Part shown: positions 5,170 through 17,557 of the stretch, in pieces
How positions within the stretch are numbered: the first letter of the stretch is position 1
Layout of the letters: each line of letters opens with the position of its first letter
Source: a virus
Taxonomy: Duplodnaviria; Heunggongvirae; Uroviricota; Caudoviricetes
Direction: 5' to 3' (one strand)
Length of the DNA: 34,673 nt
IMG/VR virus record: IMGVR_UViG_2563366915_000001
Translations under genes and position numbers: made by a program
Notes under the pieces: generated by a model
The model's input: only the letters and a program-made list of their open reading frames with translations
Databases searched by the model: none
What the model was told of the DNA's origin: nothing

Positions 5170-6102
5170 CTATTCGATTTTTTTAACCATGTAGTTACGT
5201 CGTGATGTTCCTAATCTTTCATTGTGAATCTCAGAAACGCTTACTACGAGCGATATTCGTTCACCAACTTTATATTTACTTTGAATTTCTCCTAACATAT
5301 CAATCGGATAAGAAGCCTTTATTTTTCCAAGCTCGCTTGCAATCTCCAATTTCCCGTACATGGATAAAATAGCAAGTTCGCCTGATATATGCTCATCCGG
5401 TAGCTGAATGACCTTCGTTAAAGCTAAGCGAGCATTCAGTTTTTTTATATCTTCTGAAGAAATTGACACTTGTCTGGTACCATCACTTAAAGGTCCAATC
5501 CAAGTAAGATCAAAGTTAAGACTATATTTTTCGCACTCATTTATGATGTTTTTTAGGTTAGCTGTTGATTGCGAACCAATTTCGGCAATTTTAGCCGTGA
5601 ATGTTTCTTCATCAATGGATGAGAGTAGTGCAAAAATCTCCTTAACAGCATGACTGGATACTGTTTCGATGAGCTCGCAAGAACCAGTAGAAAAAGTAAC
5701 ACCTAACTTCGTCGAACCTGGACGCAAGTCTGCCAATCTCATGTCTAATGATTTTTTAACATCAATCGGCACACGACTAGAATCTTTCCCAGATCCAAGT
5801 CGGTAAACTGCTTTCTGTACAAGGGATGCGAGATTACCTGAAATTACAGATAGAATATCTAACGGAATAGACCCGAAATCGACCAAAACACCTTTTAATC
5901 TCAACTCCATGAAATCACGTAAAGGATGTTGGTTATCGATTGCACGTTGTCTCTCTCGGAGATCGCTCAGATGGGAGTCAAGTGATCTAAATATAATGTC
6001 ATCAGCAAATGATCTCCCCTTATTTTGAGCAAGCAGATCCACATCGCGTTGAATGAACGCAATTCGCTCCTTGAGGGAGTTGAATGTTTTTTCTTCGCTC
6101 AT
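5170..6102 (-). CDS. Uncharacterised 310-aa protein, second gene of the cassette in the rexAB slot
   Basis: Long ORF in AT-rich DNA; its ATG overlaps the stop of the upstream ORF (ATGA at 6099-6102); no motif I can recognise (no Walker A, no clear HEPN Rx4-6H, no TM segment). Confidence 0.7.
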   Translation of the reverse strand: MSEEKTFNSLKERIAFIQRDVDLLAQNKGRSFADDIIFRSLDSHLSDLRERQRAIDNQHPLRDFMELRLKGVLVDFGSIPLDILSVISGNLASLVQKAVYRLGSGKDSSRVPIDVKKSLDMRLADLRPGSTKLGVTFSTGSCELIETVSSHAVKEIFALLSSIDEETFTAKIAEIGSQSTANLKNIINECEKYSLNFDLTWIGPLSDGTRQVSISSEDIKKLNARLALTKVIQLPDEHISGELAILSMYGKLEIASELGKIKASYPIDMLGEIQSKYKVGERISLVVSVSEIHNERLGTSRRNYMVKKIE

Positions 6103-6572
6103 AACATTACCCTCACGAGGCCTTTAGGATTCTCCTTCCGATCAAAACCAAACCACCCTCTCCAGTAACTTCGCCTTTCACTATAATCGATTTCTGGATG
6201 ATTTTCAGGCAGCAAAAGAACGTCAATGCTGTAGTTTTCTTTAATAAAATCTCTATTTAACAATGAGCTGACCAATGGCATCAGCGTGTTTGGCAAAGAG
6301 TTTAGGGCCAAATAATCGACGACCACGAGTATATCTATGTCATCAGGTTCAGGTTTCTCTGTAGTGAATGAACCATCGATCCACACTTCAGAGAAACATA
6401 GACACTGCTGATTAACAAGTTTAAATTGCTCAATAAGCTGTATAAAATTACAGTATAGCATACTTCTTCTAACGGATTTTGGGAAGGTGTCGACACAAAG
6501 AGACTTGATGCCATCACTATCCATATCATGAAATCCTGCTGTAAGAAGAGGTGGGAAGCTAGGCTTTTCCAT
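6099..6572 (-). CDS. Putative minimal nucleotidyltransferase (pol-beta superfamily, MNT/SMODS-like), 157 aa
   Basis: Translation contains WIDGSFTTEKPEPDDIDILVVVD, i.e. hG[GS]-x9-DxD, the signature of pol-beta-fold NTases, with a further acidic stretch (DVLLLPEN) downstream; first gene after cI on the same strand. Confidence 0.65.
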   Translation of the reverse strand: MEKPSFPPLLTAGFHDMDSDGIKSLCVDTFPKSVRRSMLYCNFIQLIEQFKLVNQQCLCFSEVWIDGSFTTEKPEPDDIDILVVVDYLALNSLPNTLMPLVSSLLNRDFIKENYSIDVLLLPENHPEIDYSERRSYWRGWFGFDRKENPKGLVRVML

Positions 6573-10548: not shown

Positions 10549-12051
10549 TTAAATTGCATCTGCAAACTCTGGGGTTTTTCGCTCAGGTATAATTGATGAG
10601 TTGCTGTTGTCACTTTTTTTATTTTCATGATTACGAATAGCCAATGACTCATTAAAGTCTTTTGCGACTGCTGTCTCAATAAATTCAATTTCTGAATCAG
10701 AGTGTTTTTTAACAGCTTCTTTGATCTCATCCAGAGTAACATAGAAAAACTCTTTTCTACGATTTACAAGATTGACTCTCTTTTTATCGAAGACATCATG
10801 TAGTTTTTTTTCTAATGATGGAGCGTCCTCCGAATAAATCATGGCATGTACATCAAAAATAAAAGGAACAGATGCATCACCGAGCTCATTTACACGGTCT
10901 TGCGGATCAAGACGTCGTGTCATGCCTATTTTATAAACATTCTCCCCAAAAGAACCTATGTTCGAAATAATATAAACATGACCTTGTTTGGTTTGTTGTG
11001 CCATGGATAATGCTCTTTGATGCTTTGATTCAGCCTGCGACAAACTCTGTTCTAGTTCGGCAATGCGATTTTCGAGGCGCTGCTTCATGTCACCAGTAAC
11101 TTTTTCCATTTCCTTTCTTGCAGCTTCAATTGCTTTTTTATAACGGCGCTCTTCTGCCTCTGCGTCTTGCATGGCCTTTTCTATTTCTCGTTGTGCACGC
11201 TCCTCCTCTCTCATTTGTGCCCTTATTTCTGCCTGTTCTTCTTTTTCTTTCTGTTTTTGCTCACGATATTCATGGGTAAGCCACAATTCCTCAAGTTTTT
11301 TATTGAGGTATTTAGTGTTTATATATATGTGATTTTGCTCGTTTAGTTTATTTATGGCCTCAAATGCCTTTGTGATGCGTTCTTCCATTTTAGTGATGTT
11401 TTTCCACGTGCAATTGCTAATTGCAGCATCACATTCATTATTAAATGCTCTAGTAGTTAGCCTGATATTTCTGTCTGTCATTTTTTTACCCTCTGCTCGA
11501 GAGCCTTCAACAGTCCATTGGGTTGTACAATATACTGCGCCAGAGTGGGTTTTATCCCGCAGCATTAATTTCTGTTCATCCCTGATGGATTTTATTTTGT
11601 TTTTAAATTGCTCTGAATCTTCAAAATTAAAATGAGGTTCGTAAAATCCTAGTTCGGCTAGCTCAACATCTTCTGAATAAATAGAAATTTGCCTTACTAG
11701 TTTATCATATATTTCTTTCTTCTCTTTATAAGTTCTTCTTAGCTCTTGGATTTGTTTATTGATACCATCCATTTTTTCAATGGTGTTTGTTAGTTCATTA
11801 TTGGCATTTTCTTTTACTTTTAGGGATTCTTCTTTTATTATGGAGCATTCTTGCTCTGTTTTCTCAATAAGCTTCTTACATTCTTCTTCTACATTAAAAT
11901 AATCTGCAAAGCGAGATTTGTATTCTTCATTTTTTTGATTGCTATCACTTAATTCTAATTGTATTTTTTTGATGCGTTTGATTGCAGCTATATAAAGAAC
12001 AAGAACAACCAATAAAAATATGATTGCAAGTAATAGAGGAGTTTGAGTCAT
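10549..12051 (-). CDS. Membrane-anchored coiled-coil protein with DUF4041-like region and C-terminal T5orf172 (GIY-YIG-like) domain, 500 aa
   Basis: N-terminal hydrophobic helix (LLLAIIFLLVVLVLYIAAI); long E/K/R/Q-rich heptad region; C-terminal GHVYIISNIGSFGENVYKIGMTRRLDPQDRVNELGDASVPFIFDVHAMIYSEDAPSLEKKLHDVFDKKRVNL...KEFFYVTLDEIKEAV fits T5orf172; antisense to the early-right operon; AT-rich. Confidence 0.8.
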   Translation of the reverse strand: MTQTPLLLAIIFLLVVLVLYIAAIKRIKKIQLELSDSNQKNEEYKSRFADYFNVEEECKKLIEKTEQECSIIKEESLKVKENANNELTNTIEKMDGINKQIQELRRTYKEKKEIYDKLVRQISIYSEDVELAELGFYEPHFNFEDSEQFKNKIKSIRDEQKLMLRDKTHSGAVYCTTQWTVEGSRAEGKKMTDRNIRLTTRAFNNECDAAISNCTWKNITKMEERITKAFEAINKLNEQNHIYINTKYLNKKLEELWLTHEYREQKQKEKEEQAEIRAQMREEERAQREIEKAMQDAEAEERRYKKAIEAARKEMEKVTGDMKQRLENRIAELEQSLSQAESKHQRALSMAQQTKQGHVYIISNIGSFGENVYKIGMTRRLDPQDRVNELGDASVPFIFDVHAMIYSEDAPSLEKKLHDVFDKKRVNLVNRRKEFFYVTLDEIKEAVKKHSDSEIEFIETAVAKDFNESLAIRNHENKKSDNSNSSIIPERKTPEFADAI

Positions 12052-12360
12052 TCGTGCTATTCCTTACGGACAATTTAAGACGTTTTGTATTAAATCCTGT
12101 TCAATGTGTATGCGGGTGATTGCTACCGCTTACAATCTTCATAATTATCAGTTAGATAGACTCGCTAGTAAATAATTTCATTTTTTGCAATATTCTTATT
12201 GAATATTTCAATTTATGAAATGAACTCTTTATCCTTTCAAGGTGAAAGGTTTCTTCTTCGGAAATATTTGCTCTCGTGTGACGTATAAAGACCTTTGATT
12301 TTCAAAAATCAGTAGGGAATAATATAGTTACTGTCGGCCTGAACACCCGGTGGTGGGGTT

Positions 12361-12450
12361 GCGCTAAACGGGGACGTTTATGCGCACACACAATCCAAAC
12401 TCTCATCTCCATTCACAGATGCAGAAATGCACCTACGATTTTTTACATTC
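12361..12450 (+). repeat. Direct repeat copy 1 (~90 bp, 7 mismatches versus copy 2 at 14295-14384)
   Basis: gcgctaaacggggacgtttatgcgcaca... aligned by eye with the ninB-proximal copy; carries a short ORF start (ATG 12380) after a GGGGA motif. Confidence 0.75.
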
Positions 12451-12863
12451 GGTGTTTTACTTCGACAGCCAGAATTGGGAGTCTCTATTCGTCTGGCGGC
12501 TAAAGGTGATATGGAAATCGTTATGTTTTGGCCTGAGGTAGTTGTAACTGTTGTAGCAGCTATGGATGTGATCATCATGGTGTCCATTTACTGGGGTTGA
12601 CGACATGATTTATCCGGCGCTATATTCTGTGCGTTGCCGCAAAATCGGCACACGGGATTGGCGTCCCGGGATACTACTCAACGCATACCGCGTTAAGCGG
12701 TTTTTTTGTGCGCTAAGCACGGCTATGCCCAAATTATGGTGGGCTGTGTGAGGGCTTCTTCGGAAGCGCCGGGTTTGAGTAGCCGGTTACGCCAACCTTA
12801 CACAGTTCACCACCAGTCGATTGGCGTCGTTGGTGGTGATGGTTAACCTGATGAGGTGATACT

Positions 12864-13472
12864 ATGACTACTCAATTAGCATTCCACAAAACGACGTTTA
12901 CCCCGATTTGCCACAATAACAGAATTTGGCTTACTGCCACTGAAGTTGGTTTAGCACTGGAATATGCGGACGATAAAGCAGTTCAGCGCATTTACTCTCG
13001 GCACTCAGATGAATTCACAGATATGATGACAAGGGTGGTCAAAGTGACCACCCCTCGTGGAATGCAGGAGTCTCGAGTATTTAGCCTTCGCGGAGCCCAT
13101 TTGATCGCCATGTTTGCTCGTACTCCTGTGGCCAAAGAATTCCGCCGCTGGGTTCTGGATATTCTCGATCGAGAAGTTCAACAATCCCCAATCACAAAAC
13201 AATTCACTGATAACGAACTTTGCACACTCGCCTGGTTATGGCGAGCAAGTGATACGATGTTAACCGCCTGCCAGAACGTTACGCCCCTTCTTCAGGTCGC
13301 AGAGCATCGCGAAGCAGGTAGATTCACTTCAATCGAACAAGAATATCCTCGGATACTCAACAGGGCGCGAGAAATCCTTGCCAGAGAAACGGCGCATGTA
13401 AAATTCCAACCGTGGCAGGATGATAAGTGGAGTCGTGTGTTACCATATTTCCGTCAGAATCTGTTGCAATAA
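12864..13472 (+). CDS. Bro-N domain antirepressor-like protein (202 aa)
   Basis: N-terminal region RIWLTATEVGLALEYADDKAVQRIYSRHSDEF...RGMQESRVFSLRGAHLIAMFARTPVAKEFRRWVLDIL fits the Bro-N/AntA pattern. Confidence 0.7.
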   Translation: MTTQLAFHKTTFTPICHNNRIWLTATEVGLALEYADDKAVQRIYSRHSDEFTDMMTRVVKVTTPRGMQESRVFSLRGAHLIAMFARTPVAKEFRRWVLDILDREVQQSPITKQFTDNELCTLAWLWRASDTMLTACQNVTPLLQVAEHREAGRFTSIEQEYPRILNRAREILARETAHVKFQPWQDDKWSRVLPYFRQNLLQ

Positions 13473-13492
13473 AGTCACTAGTTAGAAATACT

Positions 13493-13532
13493 GCCAGCAT
13501 TCTGCGATGACGGAAGTGCTGGCATTTTTTTT
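13493..13532 (+). terminator. Rho-independent terminator after the Bro-N gene
   Basis: Stem gccagca (13493-13499) / tgctggc (13517-13523), followed by an 8-T tract (13525-13532). Confidence 0.7.
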
Positions 13533-13707
13533 GGTAATGTGCGAGTCCATTTCATAAAATACGGGTACTGGAACTGGACGATATAATCTAAAAGATACCA
13601 TTATCAGTAGCATTAAAATCGCTATGTGCCGATACGGATATAAATTATATTGATTGTTCACATACCTTATTGGATATTACTGAGGGGTGTTTATATAAGG
13701 TGTAACG

Positions 13708-14217
13708 ATGATGTGGAACTTTGACAGTGCCGACTTAAGTGCAATAGCAGCAGGCATTTCTGCGTTTGGCACATTAGCCGCAGCGGGGTCGGCGCTTGCA
13801 AGTTGGTGCACGTCAAAAAAAGCGCTGCAGCTACAAAATAGAGTTTACCTTTATGAGTCTTTAAAGGCTTGCGCTGAGAGAGCCAATTCATCAGCTAAAG
13901 ATAAGCGCGGATCTGAATGGAGCGTTAATGATGCAGCGGATATCATCAGGTGCCTAGTACGGGCGATGGAGCTCATCAAGCAGGATAGCCAGCAGAAAGA
14001 AGGTAATCAGGCATTAATGTTGAAACAGTACTTTGTTAATCTGCTAATAATGGAACTGTACGAGGAAGTTCATAACGGTGATGCGGCTGATTCTGTTTTT
14101 AAAAGTACGGAACCTACACAAGTACTTGATAACTTATGGAGCAAATGGCAGGAGGCTATAGCTTTTTTTGATATTTGGAATTACCCAGTTGCGACTGAGG
14201 AAGACTTGGCAGACTAA
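13708..14217 (+). CDS. Uncharacterised 169-aa protein with hydrophobic N-terminal segment
   Basis: ORF downstream of the terminator in AT-rich DNA; N-terminal AIAAGISAFGTLAAAGSALASW suggests a TM or signal segment; no recognisable catalytic motif. Confidence 0.5.
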   Translation: MMWNFDSADLSAIAAGISAFGTLAAAGSALASWCTSKKALQLQNRVYLYESLKACAERANSSAKDKRGSEWSVNDAADIIRCLVRAMELIKQDSQQKEGNQALMLKQYFVNLLIMELYEEVHNGDAADSVFKSTEPTQVLDNLWSKWQEAIAFFDIWNYPVATEEDLAD

Positions 14218-14294
14218 TTTTCAGCACATTTGATTTCCAATAATCAACCAGCCATAATCATGCCATTGGAGCTTGAACAACTCCGGTGACTTCT

Positions 14295-14384
14295 GCGCTA
14301 AACGGGGACGTTTATGCGCACATACAATCCAAACTCTCTTCTCCCTTCACAGATGCAGAGATGCACCTGCGATTTTTTGCATCC
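14295..14384 (+). repeat. Direct repeat copy 2, immediately upstream of ninB
   Basis: See copy 1; about 92 percent identical over 90 bp. Confidence 0.75.
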
Positions 14385-14415
14385 AGCGTTTGACCTCTGC
14401 GGAGGTGAAGCGTGA
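14314..14415 (+). CDS. Small ORF (33 aa) inside repeat copy 2, YlcH-like by position; overlaps the ninB start
   Basis: ATG preceded by GGGGA; encodes [33 protein letters not shown]; DLP12 has a 33-aa ylcH in this position (recollection). Differences from copy 1 are mostly non-synonymous, so coding status is doubtful. Confidence 0.3.
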
Positions 14416-14867
14416 ACCTCCCACAAGACGGCATCAAATTGCATCGTGGTAACTTCACCGCTATCGGCCAGCAGATCCAGCCTTATCTGGAGGAAGGCAA
14501 ATGCTTTCGCATGGTGCTTAAACCGTGGCGTGAGAAACGCAGTCTTTCCCAGAATGCACTCAGCCACATGTGGTACAGCGAAATCAGTGAATACCTCATC
14601 AGCAGGGGTAAAACGTTCGCCACTCCAGCTTGGGTAAAAGATGCTCTCAAACACACATATCTCGGTTATGAAACCAAAGACCTGGTTGATGTCGTAACCG
14701 GTGAGATCACCACTATCCAGTCGTTACGCCATACCTCCGATCTTGATACCGGAGAGATGTATATCTTCCTGTGTAAGGTTGAAGCCTGGGCGGTGAATAT
14801 TGGCTGCCACCTGACTATTCCGCAGAGCTGCGAGTTCCAGCTGCTGCGCGACAAGCAGGAGGCGTAA
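14412..14867 (+). CDS. ninB: NinB-family protein (YbcN-like), GTG start
   Basis: Translation [55 protein letters not shown]... has the NinB-type RSLSQN motif and matches what I recall of DLP12 YbcN. Confidence 0.8.
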
Positions 14868-15037
14868 TGGCTACACCGCTTATTCGTGTCATGAACGGAC
14901 ACATCTACAGAGTACCAAATCGTCGTAAGCGTAAACCTGAGCTGAAGCCATCCGAAATACCAACACTGCTCGGATATACCGCCAGCTTGGTTGATAAAAA
15001 ATGGTTGCGACTGGCAGCAAGGAGGAATCATGGCTGA
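14867..15037 (+). CDS. ninE: NinE-like small protein (56 aa); not in the ORF track because it is under 60 aa
   Basis: Read manually: ATG at 14867 overlapping the ninB stop (TAATG), [56 protein letters not shown], stop at 15035-15037. Confidence 0.6.
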   Translation: MATPLIRVMNGHIYRVPNRRKRKPELKPSEIPTLLGYTASLVDKKWLRLAARRNHG

Positions 15038-16474: not shown

Positions 16475-17557
16475 TTAGAACTGGTAAACCAGACCTACAG
16501 CAACGATGTCATCAGTATCAATACCAGCTGTTTTGGTAAACTTACTATCGTCAATTAAGTTGATTTTGTAATCAACAAAAGTGGACATGTTTTTATTAAA
16601 GTAGTAAGTAGCACCGACATCGACATACTTGACTAAGTCTCGGTCACCATGAACACCAAGGTCTTTACCTTTTGACTGAAGGTAAGCAACAGATGGGCGC
16701 AGACCGAAGTCAAACTGATATTGTGCTACTGCTTCAAAGTTTTGTGCTTTGTTTGCAATATGGTTATTACCAAAAACGGTCATATTCTGAGTTTCAGAAT
16801 ATGTGGTAGCCAGATAGATATTGTTCGCATCATATTTCAGGCCTGCAGCCCATACTTCCGCATTTTTGCCGGAGGCATTGAATTTGCTCTTACCATAGGC
16901 GACCTGACCGTCAGTGCGATCTGATTTAGCATAGGTTGCACCCACGCCGAATCCTTCATACTCATAAGTAGTGGAGAAACCGAAACCATCACCATTGGCT
17001 TCAGTTACGTCAGTGCGGTCATTTTTACCCTGATACTGAGCAGCAAAGTTCAGGCCATCGACCAGACCAAAGAAGTCGTTGTTACGATAAGTTGCAACAC
17101 CAGTAGTGCGACCAGTCATGAACACATCTGTTTGGGTCCAGGTATCACCACCGAATTCTGGCAGGACGTCAGTCCACGCACCGATGTCGTATGCTACACC
17201 GTAGTTACGGCCGTAATCGATTGAGCCGTAATCACCAAATTTCAGGCCTGCAAATGCAAGACGGGTTTTGTCTTTGGAAGAACCTTGAGATTCAGCGCGG
17301 TTGCCTTTGAATTCATATTCCCACTGACCGAAACCAGTCAGTTGATCGTTGATTTGGGTTTCACCTTTGAAGCCAAGACGGGCATAAGTAGTATCACCAT
17401 CATCTGCATCATTAGAGGAGAAGTAGTGCTTAGCATTAACTTTCCCGTACAGATCCAGCTTGTTACTGTCTTTATTATAAATTTCAGCTGCCTGAGCAGA
17501 CATCGCCATCAGTACTGATGCAGCTACAGCAGAAATTGCCACTGTTAATTTTTTCAT
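16475..17557 (-). CDS. nmpC: Outer-membrane general porin of the OmpC/OmpF family, NmpC/Lc type, intact 360 aa with signal peptide
   Basis: Signal peptide [23 protein letters not shown], porin body and C-terminal ...AVGLVYQF beta-barrel signature; location between Q and the lysis genes as in DLP12/PA-2. Confidence 0.9.

Follow-up and report, generated by a model that had tools for sequence, protein, structure and literature searches.

The cargo of prophages and its expression

In lambda-like prophages, the interval between ren and ninB has proved to be a source of defence genes, and an ORF located in such an interval (13708-14217, + strand, 169 aa) raises the question of what a small protein without known domains does there and whether it is transcribed apart from the phage operon around it. 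The window, by which we mean the whole stretch of DNA analysed (34,673 nt), is a DLP12/lambda-like prophage of E. coli. Its left part holds int, exo/bet/gam, cI, cro, cII, O, P and ren, followed by the cargo interval, to the right of which lie ybcN (a weak NinB match), ybcO, rusA, ylcG, Q, a porin gene, lysis genes and lambda-type head and tail genes. The window is 100% identical to PhiR26_1 around the ORF, differs from it next to cI, and is 97% identical to PhiR5_1 over 821 bp. The PhiR phages form a temperate lambda-related panel (source Brenes & Laub 2025) that was used in the SNIPE study (PMC13190303).

The preliminary description had placed the ORF inside a cargo module, and its setting bears this out, as the ren-ninB interval of the window also carries the SNIPE gene as well as an antirepressor module with IsrK and C4 RNA matches in front of it. 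The SNIPE gene (10549-12051, - strand) encodes 500 aa, in which a hydrophobic segment at the N-terminus is accompanied by DUF4041 and by a T5orf172/GIY-YIG-type domain, and its product matches PADLOC PD-Lambda-1 with E = 1.9e-198. SNIPE is a nuclease bound to the membrane, by which phage DNA is cut during injection (PMC13190303). The BRO-N/P22AR_C antirepressor gene (12864-13472) lies directly downstream of three RNA matches on the + strand, namely the a1/b1 C4 targets (12620-12672), isrK (12635-12707, 58.7 bits) and the C4 antisense RNA (12732-12817, 74.8 bits), all with scores above or near the Rfam gathering score. Together, these RNAs and the antirepressor resemble the immI module of P1 and the IsrK-AnrP control module of Gifsy-1. 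A candidate defence pair, PDC-M63B/A (5170-6572, - strand; PADLOC E = 4e-42 and 7e-43), is found next to cI as overlapping genes for 310 aa and 157 aa, the 157-aa product being a DUF6932 protein; PhiR26_1 has a different gene at this place. Just past the Q antiterminator gene and on the opposite strand, a complete OmpC/NmpC-type porin gene (16475-17557, - strand; Porin_1, E = 1.9e-151) is likely a lysogenic-conversion gene that could alter the phage receptor surface.

We also observed a duplicated unit (14228-14397 and 12294-12463, + strand) that flanks the antirepressor module and the 169-aa gene on both sides. No Rfam match was obtained for it. It contains a TTGATT-N6-AATCAA palindrome followed by CATAAT, forming a promoter-like site, a hairpin with the loop CYTGAACAM and compensatory stem changes, and a second hairpin with the loop GGGGA. 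The unit also holds the 33-aa ylcH ORF and a terminator-like hairpin with a T-run at 14354-14371, and could be a small RNA or a ybcN/ninB leader rather than a protein gene.

The ORF, recorded as WP_000990010.1 and annotated "hypothetical protein", is almost certainly a real gene. It starts at the ATG at 13708 or at a second in-frame ATG at 13711, which is the annotated start in PhiR5_1, and the Shine-Dalgarno sequence AAGGTG (13697-13702, + strand) stands 5 nt before the first of these; three homologous loci (L003, L004 and L006) have GAGG-type ribosome-binding sites in the same place. Against these three, which belong to other Enterobacterales prophages and share 51-63% protein identity with the window protein, pN is 0.21-0.30 vs a pS of 0.78-0.88, as expected of a sequence that is under purifying selection. 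We regard the gene as real because of this low pN relative to a saturated pS, because the ribosome-binding site is conserved, because the PHROG 1779 profile spans the protein end to end (1-169 of 169, E = 1.7e-102), and because the gene is intact in the decayed prophage of FDAARGOS_772 (L013), where the antirepressor gene is a pseudogene and rusA is frameshifted. Truncated copies amount to 2 among about 55 close relatives recovered from IMG/VR.

Calling the protein an orphan, as had been done, overstated its isolation. Besides its membership in PHROG 1779, the family has 22 representatives at 50% identity among 1.84 billion proteins and 14 clusters at 90% identity in a word search; the 90% cluster of the window protein counts 460 members, and the exact sequence occurs in at least 1,000 contigs. 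Most of the 821-bp region that includes the gene is present in 178 of 5,426 complete E. coli genomes and in only 2 of 50,697 phage records. E. coli also harbours two other clades of the family. All homologues seen come from Escherichia, Klebsiella, Enterobacter, Citrobacter, Raoultella, Leclercia, Scandinavium, Serratia, Pantoea, Erwinia and Dryocola. All the contexts examined are Enterobacterales prophages or integrative elements, with no chromosomal homologue outside them. The absence of a recognisable motif, also noted beforehand, was confirmed by searches of Pfam, NCBIfam and PADLOC, which gave no match. None of the defence families of PADLOC-DB 2.0 was hit at E <= 1 (0 families), and no homologue hit carries a precomputed Pfam domain. 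The literature search found no paper naming the protein, and it is absent from the DefensePredictor supplements. DUF4760, the UniRef name of the homologue P0051, was discarded as an assignment, since ten homologues including P0051 had no Pfam match to it at E <= 10; it did not match the window protein or the 20 members of alignment A2 either, and a literature search on DUF4760 was empty.

A replaceable unit between the antirepressor gene and ylcH

The limits of the unit to which the gene belongs were obtained by comparison with E. coli 20KM0223N (L012). This genome is 95-97% identical to window positions 12360-13479 and 14217-15000 while the cassette between them is replaced, with breakpoints at 13479/13480 and 14216/14217. 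The same slot, between the antirepressor gene and ylcH, is occupied there by two unrelated ORFs of 58 and 210 aa (L012 4036-4841), neither of them with a Pfam or PADLOC match, and therefore we consider the antirepressor-ylcH slot as a cassette exchange site. Since the flanks match up to 13479 and from 14217, the swapped unit is 13480-14216 (+ strand, 737 bp) and contains the terminator, an AT-rich spacer, the promoter, the ribosome-binding site and the ORF. The GC content is 42.1% in the cassette, 47.3% in the antirepressor gene and 51.6% in ybcN-rusA. Three features expected of a moron were thus found, namely replacement in a collinear genome, an own promoter at the level of sequence and a deviating base composition, and they support the reading of 13480-14216 as a moron-type accessory cassette, placed at the right-hand end of the cargo interval between ren and ninB. 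In E. coli, the gene upstream of the 169-aa gene carries a P22AR_C domain; the whole antirepressor-plus-gene stretch is common to 112 genomes, others having an antirepressor variant or remnant. In other genera the upstream neighbours are DUF551 proteins, unknowns or a ParB-like protein.

The preliminary description had proposed that the gene follows a strong terminator and a 175-bp AT-rich spacer and is transcribed separately, and the three proposals agree with what we found, the separate transcription at the level of sequence. The intrinsic terminator (13492-13532, + strand) forms the left cassette edge, with a GC-rich stem made of the arms TGCCAGCA (13492-13499) and TGCTGGCA (13517-13524), extended by inner pairs and followed by T8 (13525-13532). 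Its fold has a dG of -23.2 kcal/mol and z = -2.75, with 2 of 200 shuffles folding as well; the consensus scan missed it, probably due to a long loop relative to the loop limit of the scan. The terminator is also present in PhiR5_1, and no comparable hairpin was seen by eye past the same antirepressor gene in L012, which is devoid of the cassette, indicating that the terminator travels with the gene. The terminator also gave an Rfam match to mir-725, which at E = 0.12 falls far short of the gathering score and was attributed to chance.

Downstream of the terminator, the 175 bp from 13533 to 13707 have a GC content of 34.9% vs 50.3% for the whole window. They begin with the AT-rich spacer (13533-13649, + strand), conserved in the E. 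coli clade only, the last bases of which are the A/T-rich stretch upstream of a -35 element. The predicted sigma-70 promoter (13650-13678, + strand) consists of the -35 TTGATT (13650-13655), a 17-nt spacer and the -10 GATATT (13673-13678), from which transcription would be expected to start near 13684-13686. The pattern TTGnnn-17-GATATT is found in all the alleles examined, at 51-100% identity, and ends 27-32 nt before the start codon; in alignment A3 (seven sequences), TTG and TGGATATTA are invariant and the flanks variable. Judged by this conservation down to 51% identity, the gene quite likely has its own promoter. Another promoter predicted by the scan (13531-13560) is broken in PhiR5_1 and was not counted.

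An imperfect inverted repeat, ACATACCT / AGGGGTGT (13660-13690, + strand), brackets the -10. The window copy is degenerate; the repeat is perfect in L003 (ATACCCT-N15-AGGGTAT), and similar repeats, perfect as well, surround the -10 in L054 and L057. In the clades at 45-56% identity, the 5' arm of a GC hairpin is joined to TATAAT or TATACT, and a T-run lies between the hairpin and the start codon; in two alleles (L073 and L087) the ribosome-binding site lies inside the 3' hairpin arm. We infer that the repeat around the -10 may act as a terminator or an operator and that the promoter would be embedded in a terminator. Such a hairpin would stop read-through transcripts and, in some alleles, silence translation too, while transcripts from the embedded promoter would start without the 5' arm and so escape it. 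A LexA box was considered for the repeat, and the spacing, checked by eye, does not fit. At the other end of the cassette, no terminator comes directly after the stop codon in the window, the next hairpin with a T-run being the one at 14354-14371 inside ylcH. A strong terminator stands immediately past the stop codon in L054, L057, L058 and L009, and the first three of these hold a complete promoter-gene-terminator unit. The cassette appears as a clear case of a terminator and a promoter packaged with a cargo gene.

The position of the gene is also what could be expected from an ordinary delayed-early accessory gene of the replication/nin region, expressed mainly in lytic growth via antitermination and acting on replication, recombination or host takeover, in which case the upstream terminator could merely be the tR2-like timing terminator of the phage. 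The gene is always co-oriented with the early genes. Of 34 distinct alleles, 29 have NinB or DUF1367 encoded on the same strand no more than about 1.2 kb downstream, and in 23 of these 29 the gap is 140-202 nt. In addition, a phage gene for DNA polymerase III theta (HolE/HOT-like) is directly adjacent to several distinct homologues, in seven alleles. In three distant prophage types (L009 5756-6519, L095 4762-5513 and L098 4762-5513) theta comes first, sharing 4 nt with the gene, and it comes second in L062 (3001-3838), which is the order of Klebsiella-type prophages. However, this adjacency may be positional, and we treat it so rather than as a functional linkage, because theta is common there and the gene was found at just 5 of the 80 closest theta loci. 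The delayed-early explanation is further supported by a distant clade at 25-30% identity, from Dryocola, Pantoea and a metagenomic contig, where the gene lies in a same-strand string with RecT or YqaJ, among RecT, YqaJ, DUF551 and methylase genes, and has no promoter of its own; in the Dryocola and Pantoea loci the theta-gene pair is near an integrase gene. These loci look like early-left operons and show that some family members are ordinary operon genes without their own promoter; they point to an early lytic role and make it less likely that the whole family is expressed in the lysogen alone. In contrast, in the E. coli and intermediate clades the conserved promoter lies immediately upstream and the terminator travels along with the gene, some alleles have a terminator right after it, and the gene stays intact in the decayed prophage. 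We consider the delayed-early explanation possible, a little less likely than the moron cassette and closer to it than the other alternatives.

Topology and fold of the predicted protein

The hydrophobic N-terminus had been described as a possible membrane anchor or signal, of which the anchor is retained and the signal is not. In the window protein, the uncharged run LSAIAAGISAFGTLAAAGSALASWCTS covers residues 10-36, with a best 19-residue Kyte-Doolittle mean of 1.59, and contains a predicted single transmembrane helix rich in small residues (residues about 10-33; 13735-13806, + strand). Over 62 family members, the run has a median length of 25 aa and a median KD19 of 1.73. The N-flank of the run totals 13 basic and 112 acidic residues in these members, and the 15 residues C-terminal to it 202 basic and 65 acidic ones. 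Because the hydrophobic run is family-wide and is preceded by acidic and followed by basic residues, as the positive-inside rule predicts, an N-out/C-in inner-membrane anchor is probable. A Sec signal peptide is unlikely on account of the acidic N-flanks, the window protein having no basic residue before the hydrophobic run. A lipoprotein is unlikely as well: the lipobox motif is L-[AS]-[GA]-C, which LASWC does not follow, and Cys34 is replaced by Tyr in the commonest allele. Within the helix, positions 18, 21, 22, 24, 25, 26, 28, 29 and 32 are always Ala, Gly, Ser, Thr or Cys, and bulky residues are commonest at positions 20, 23, 27 and 30. The always-small positions suggest that the helix packs closely against another one, either of a second copy of the protein or of a membrane protein of the host.

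Downstream of the anchor, residues 34-161 (13807-14190, + strand) form an acidic all-helical domain in the AlphaFold2 model, predicted to be cytoplasmic, and the juxtamembrane motif KALQLQ...ESLKACAERAN is conserved in it. The protein has a pI of 4.7. The model, built from 20 sequences, has a mean pLDDT of 76, rising to 85-93 over residues 41-90 and low over residues 1-30, and draws helices at residues 7-63, 73-94, 101-112, 115-123, 126-133 and 138-154. A56, W71, I79, I90, W147 and F153 are invariant. The protein ends with a conserved acidic tail, ATEEDLAD (residues 162-169; 14191-14214, + strand), in which T163, E165, D166, L167 and D169 are invariant in 13 sequences at 48-99% identity; T(D/E)EDLAD is kept in most of a 26-sequence alignment.

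Another explanation for the Ala-rich N-terminal helix is that it serves as an oligomerisation helix, of the Ala-coil type, in a soluble cytoplasmic protein. The window allele is only marginally hydrophobic, a simple sum on the Hessa scale giving roughly +2.7 kcal/mol, about two-thirds of the helix surface is made of small residues, and AlphaFold2 draws residues 7-63 as one continuous helix. However, the uncharged run measures 18-30 residues in nearly all 62 members and many alleles reach KD values of 1.9-2.5, the charges of the flanks are strongly positive-inside (13 vs 202 basic residues), and the low pLDDT over residues 1-30 may be read as a segment unpacked against the domain. A soluble protein is thus quite unlikely, and we retain the membrane anchor.

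Possible roles of the probable membrane protein

A moron cassette with its own promoter, encoding an inner-membrane protein involved in phage-phage conflict, is on the whole our best explanation for the locus, to be taken as tentative. The terminator would end un-antiterminated transcripts coming from the early-right operon and the antirepressor gene, and the gene would be read from its own promoter, in the lysogen included; during lytic growth it would probably be read through too, if phage antitermination overrides the terminator. The product would then insert into the inner membrane, with about nine residues outside, one small-residue-rich helix and, in the cytoplasm, an acidic helical domain of about 135 residues. 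In the last and weakest step, the protein would take part in conflicts between phages from the cytoplasmic side of the inner membrane, where it could hinder incoming phage DNA from entering, or detect an infection and perturb the membrane. Taken separately, a conflict-related function is possible but still more speculative than the explanation as a whole. In its favour we counted the autonomous expression signals, the presence of SNIPE in the same interval, the PDC-M63 pair and the gene having stayed intact where its prophage decayed; against it, the constancy of the synteny, the operon-like setting of the distant clade and the lack of similarity to known defence and exclusion proteins (PADLOC profiles and HK97 gp15). 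The marginal hydrophobicity of the window allele and the missing terminator directly past the stop codon were counted against the best explanation. An exclusion or lysogenic-conversion role, as the preliminary description had suggested, is a plausible hypothesis, against which the distant homologues in operon-like strings without a promoter speak.

It is unlikely that the family represents a novel defence or exclusion system of prophages that consists of a single gene in an insulated cassette, with a terminator-like hairpin enclosing the promoter -10 or fused to it. In such a cassette, transcripts reading through would stop, with the ribosome-binding site sequestered in some alleles, and own-promoter transcripts would escape. 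The kind of element is itself well known, being a moron for a small membrane protein, and the family is already catalogued as a PHROG.

Known systems were compared with the cassette and its protein. SNIPE belongs to the same cargo interval and the same prophage, its gene being about 1.7 kb upstream of the 169-aa gene. Its topology, established by experiment, comprises a short N-terminus outside, one transmembrane helix and a cytoplasmic effector domain (PMC13190303), and is the one predicted for the 169-aa protein. Unlike SNIPE, the 169-aa protein has no nuclease or DNA-binding motif, and its gene also occurs without SNIPE (PhiR5_1, L003-L006). More distant parallels are found in lambda rexB and sieB and in P22 sieA and sieB, which are membrane-protein genes expressible independently of the lytic operons, located in immunity or early-left regions and several of them encoding multi-pass proteins. 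The likeness to rexB, sieB and sieA is one of analogy, as prophage membrane-protein genes with their own promoters, and not of sequence comparison. HK97 gp15 is also an inner-membrane protein, and Cumby and colleagues reportedly described its exclusion function in 2012. In the HK97 record AF069529, gene 15 is a "moron product" with a putative terminator annotated right after it. Like this gene and morons in general, a class drawn from the comparison of the HK97 and HK022 genomes, the cassette is a small self-transcribable unit between conserved phage genes, with a GC content below that of its surroundings. However, gp15 has 62 aa and is encoded in the tail gene cluster, the terminator in the window is upstream of the gene and not after it, and the 169-aa gene keeps its place next to ninB far more strictly than phage morons usually do. 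A relationship with gp15 was rejected, hhalign giving a probability of 0.5% over 6 aligned columns. PHROG 1779, of which the protein is a member end to end, has no functional annotation and so adds no mechanism.

The promoter and membrane features on which the conflict role is based would equally fit a lysogenic-conversion factor that alters host physiology, for example an inner-membrane transporter or the envelope, with no direct part in phage-phage interactions; the porin gene after Q shows that the prophage carries host-modifying cargo. However, we found no similarity of the protein to transporter regulators or virulence factors, and its homologues are confined to prophages and integrative elements in all contexts examined, which makes such a factor improbable. 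Finally, a chance ORF in cargo DNA, compatible with the absence of a known domain, has practically no probability left given the strong purifying selection, the conserved ribosome-binding site and promoter, the homologues across many Enterobacterales genera and the confident helical fold of the AlphaFold2 model.

For the moron cassette with a possible role in phage-phage conflict, the 169-aa gene is a cheap and well-defined candidate for a phage-challenge screen, located in the interval where SNIPE sits and with an exact sequence that is widespread; by itself, its product is one more conserved hypothetical prophage protein. As a separate observation, the Dryocola element with a distant homologue contains a reverse transcriptase gene next to that of a SLATT_5-domain protein (L009 2031-3931), close to an Ogr/Delta-type gene and the integrase gene, and this pair looks like a retron-type defence system.
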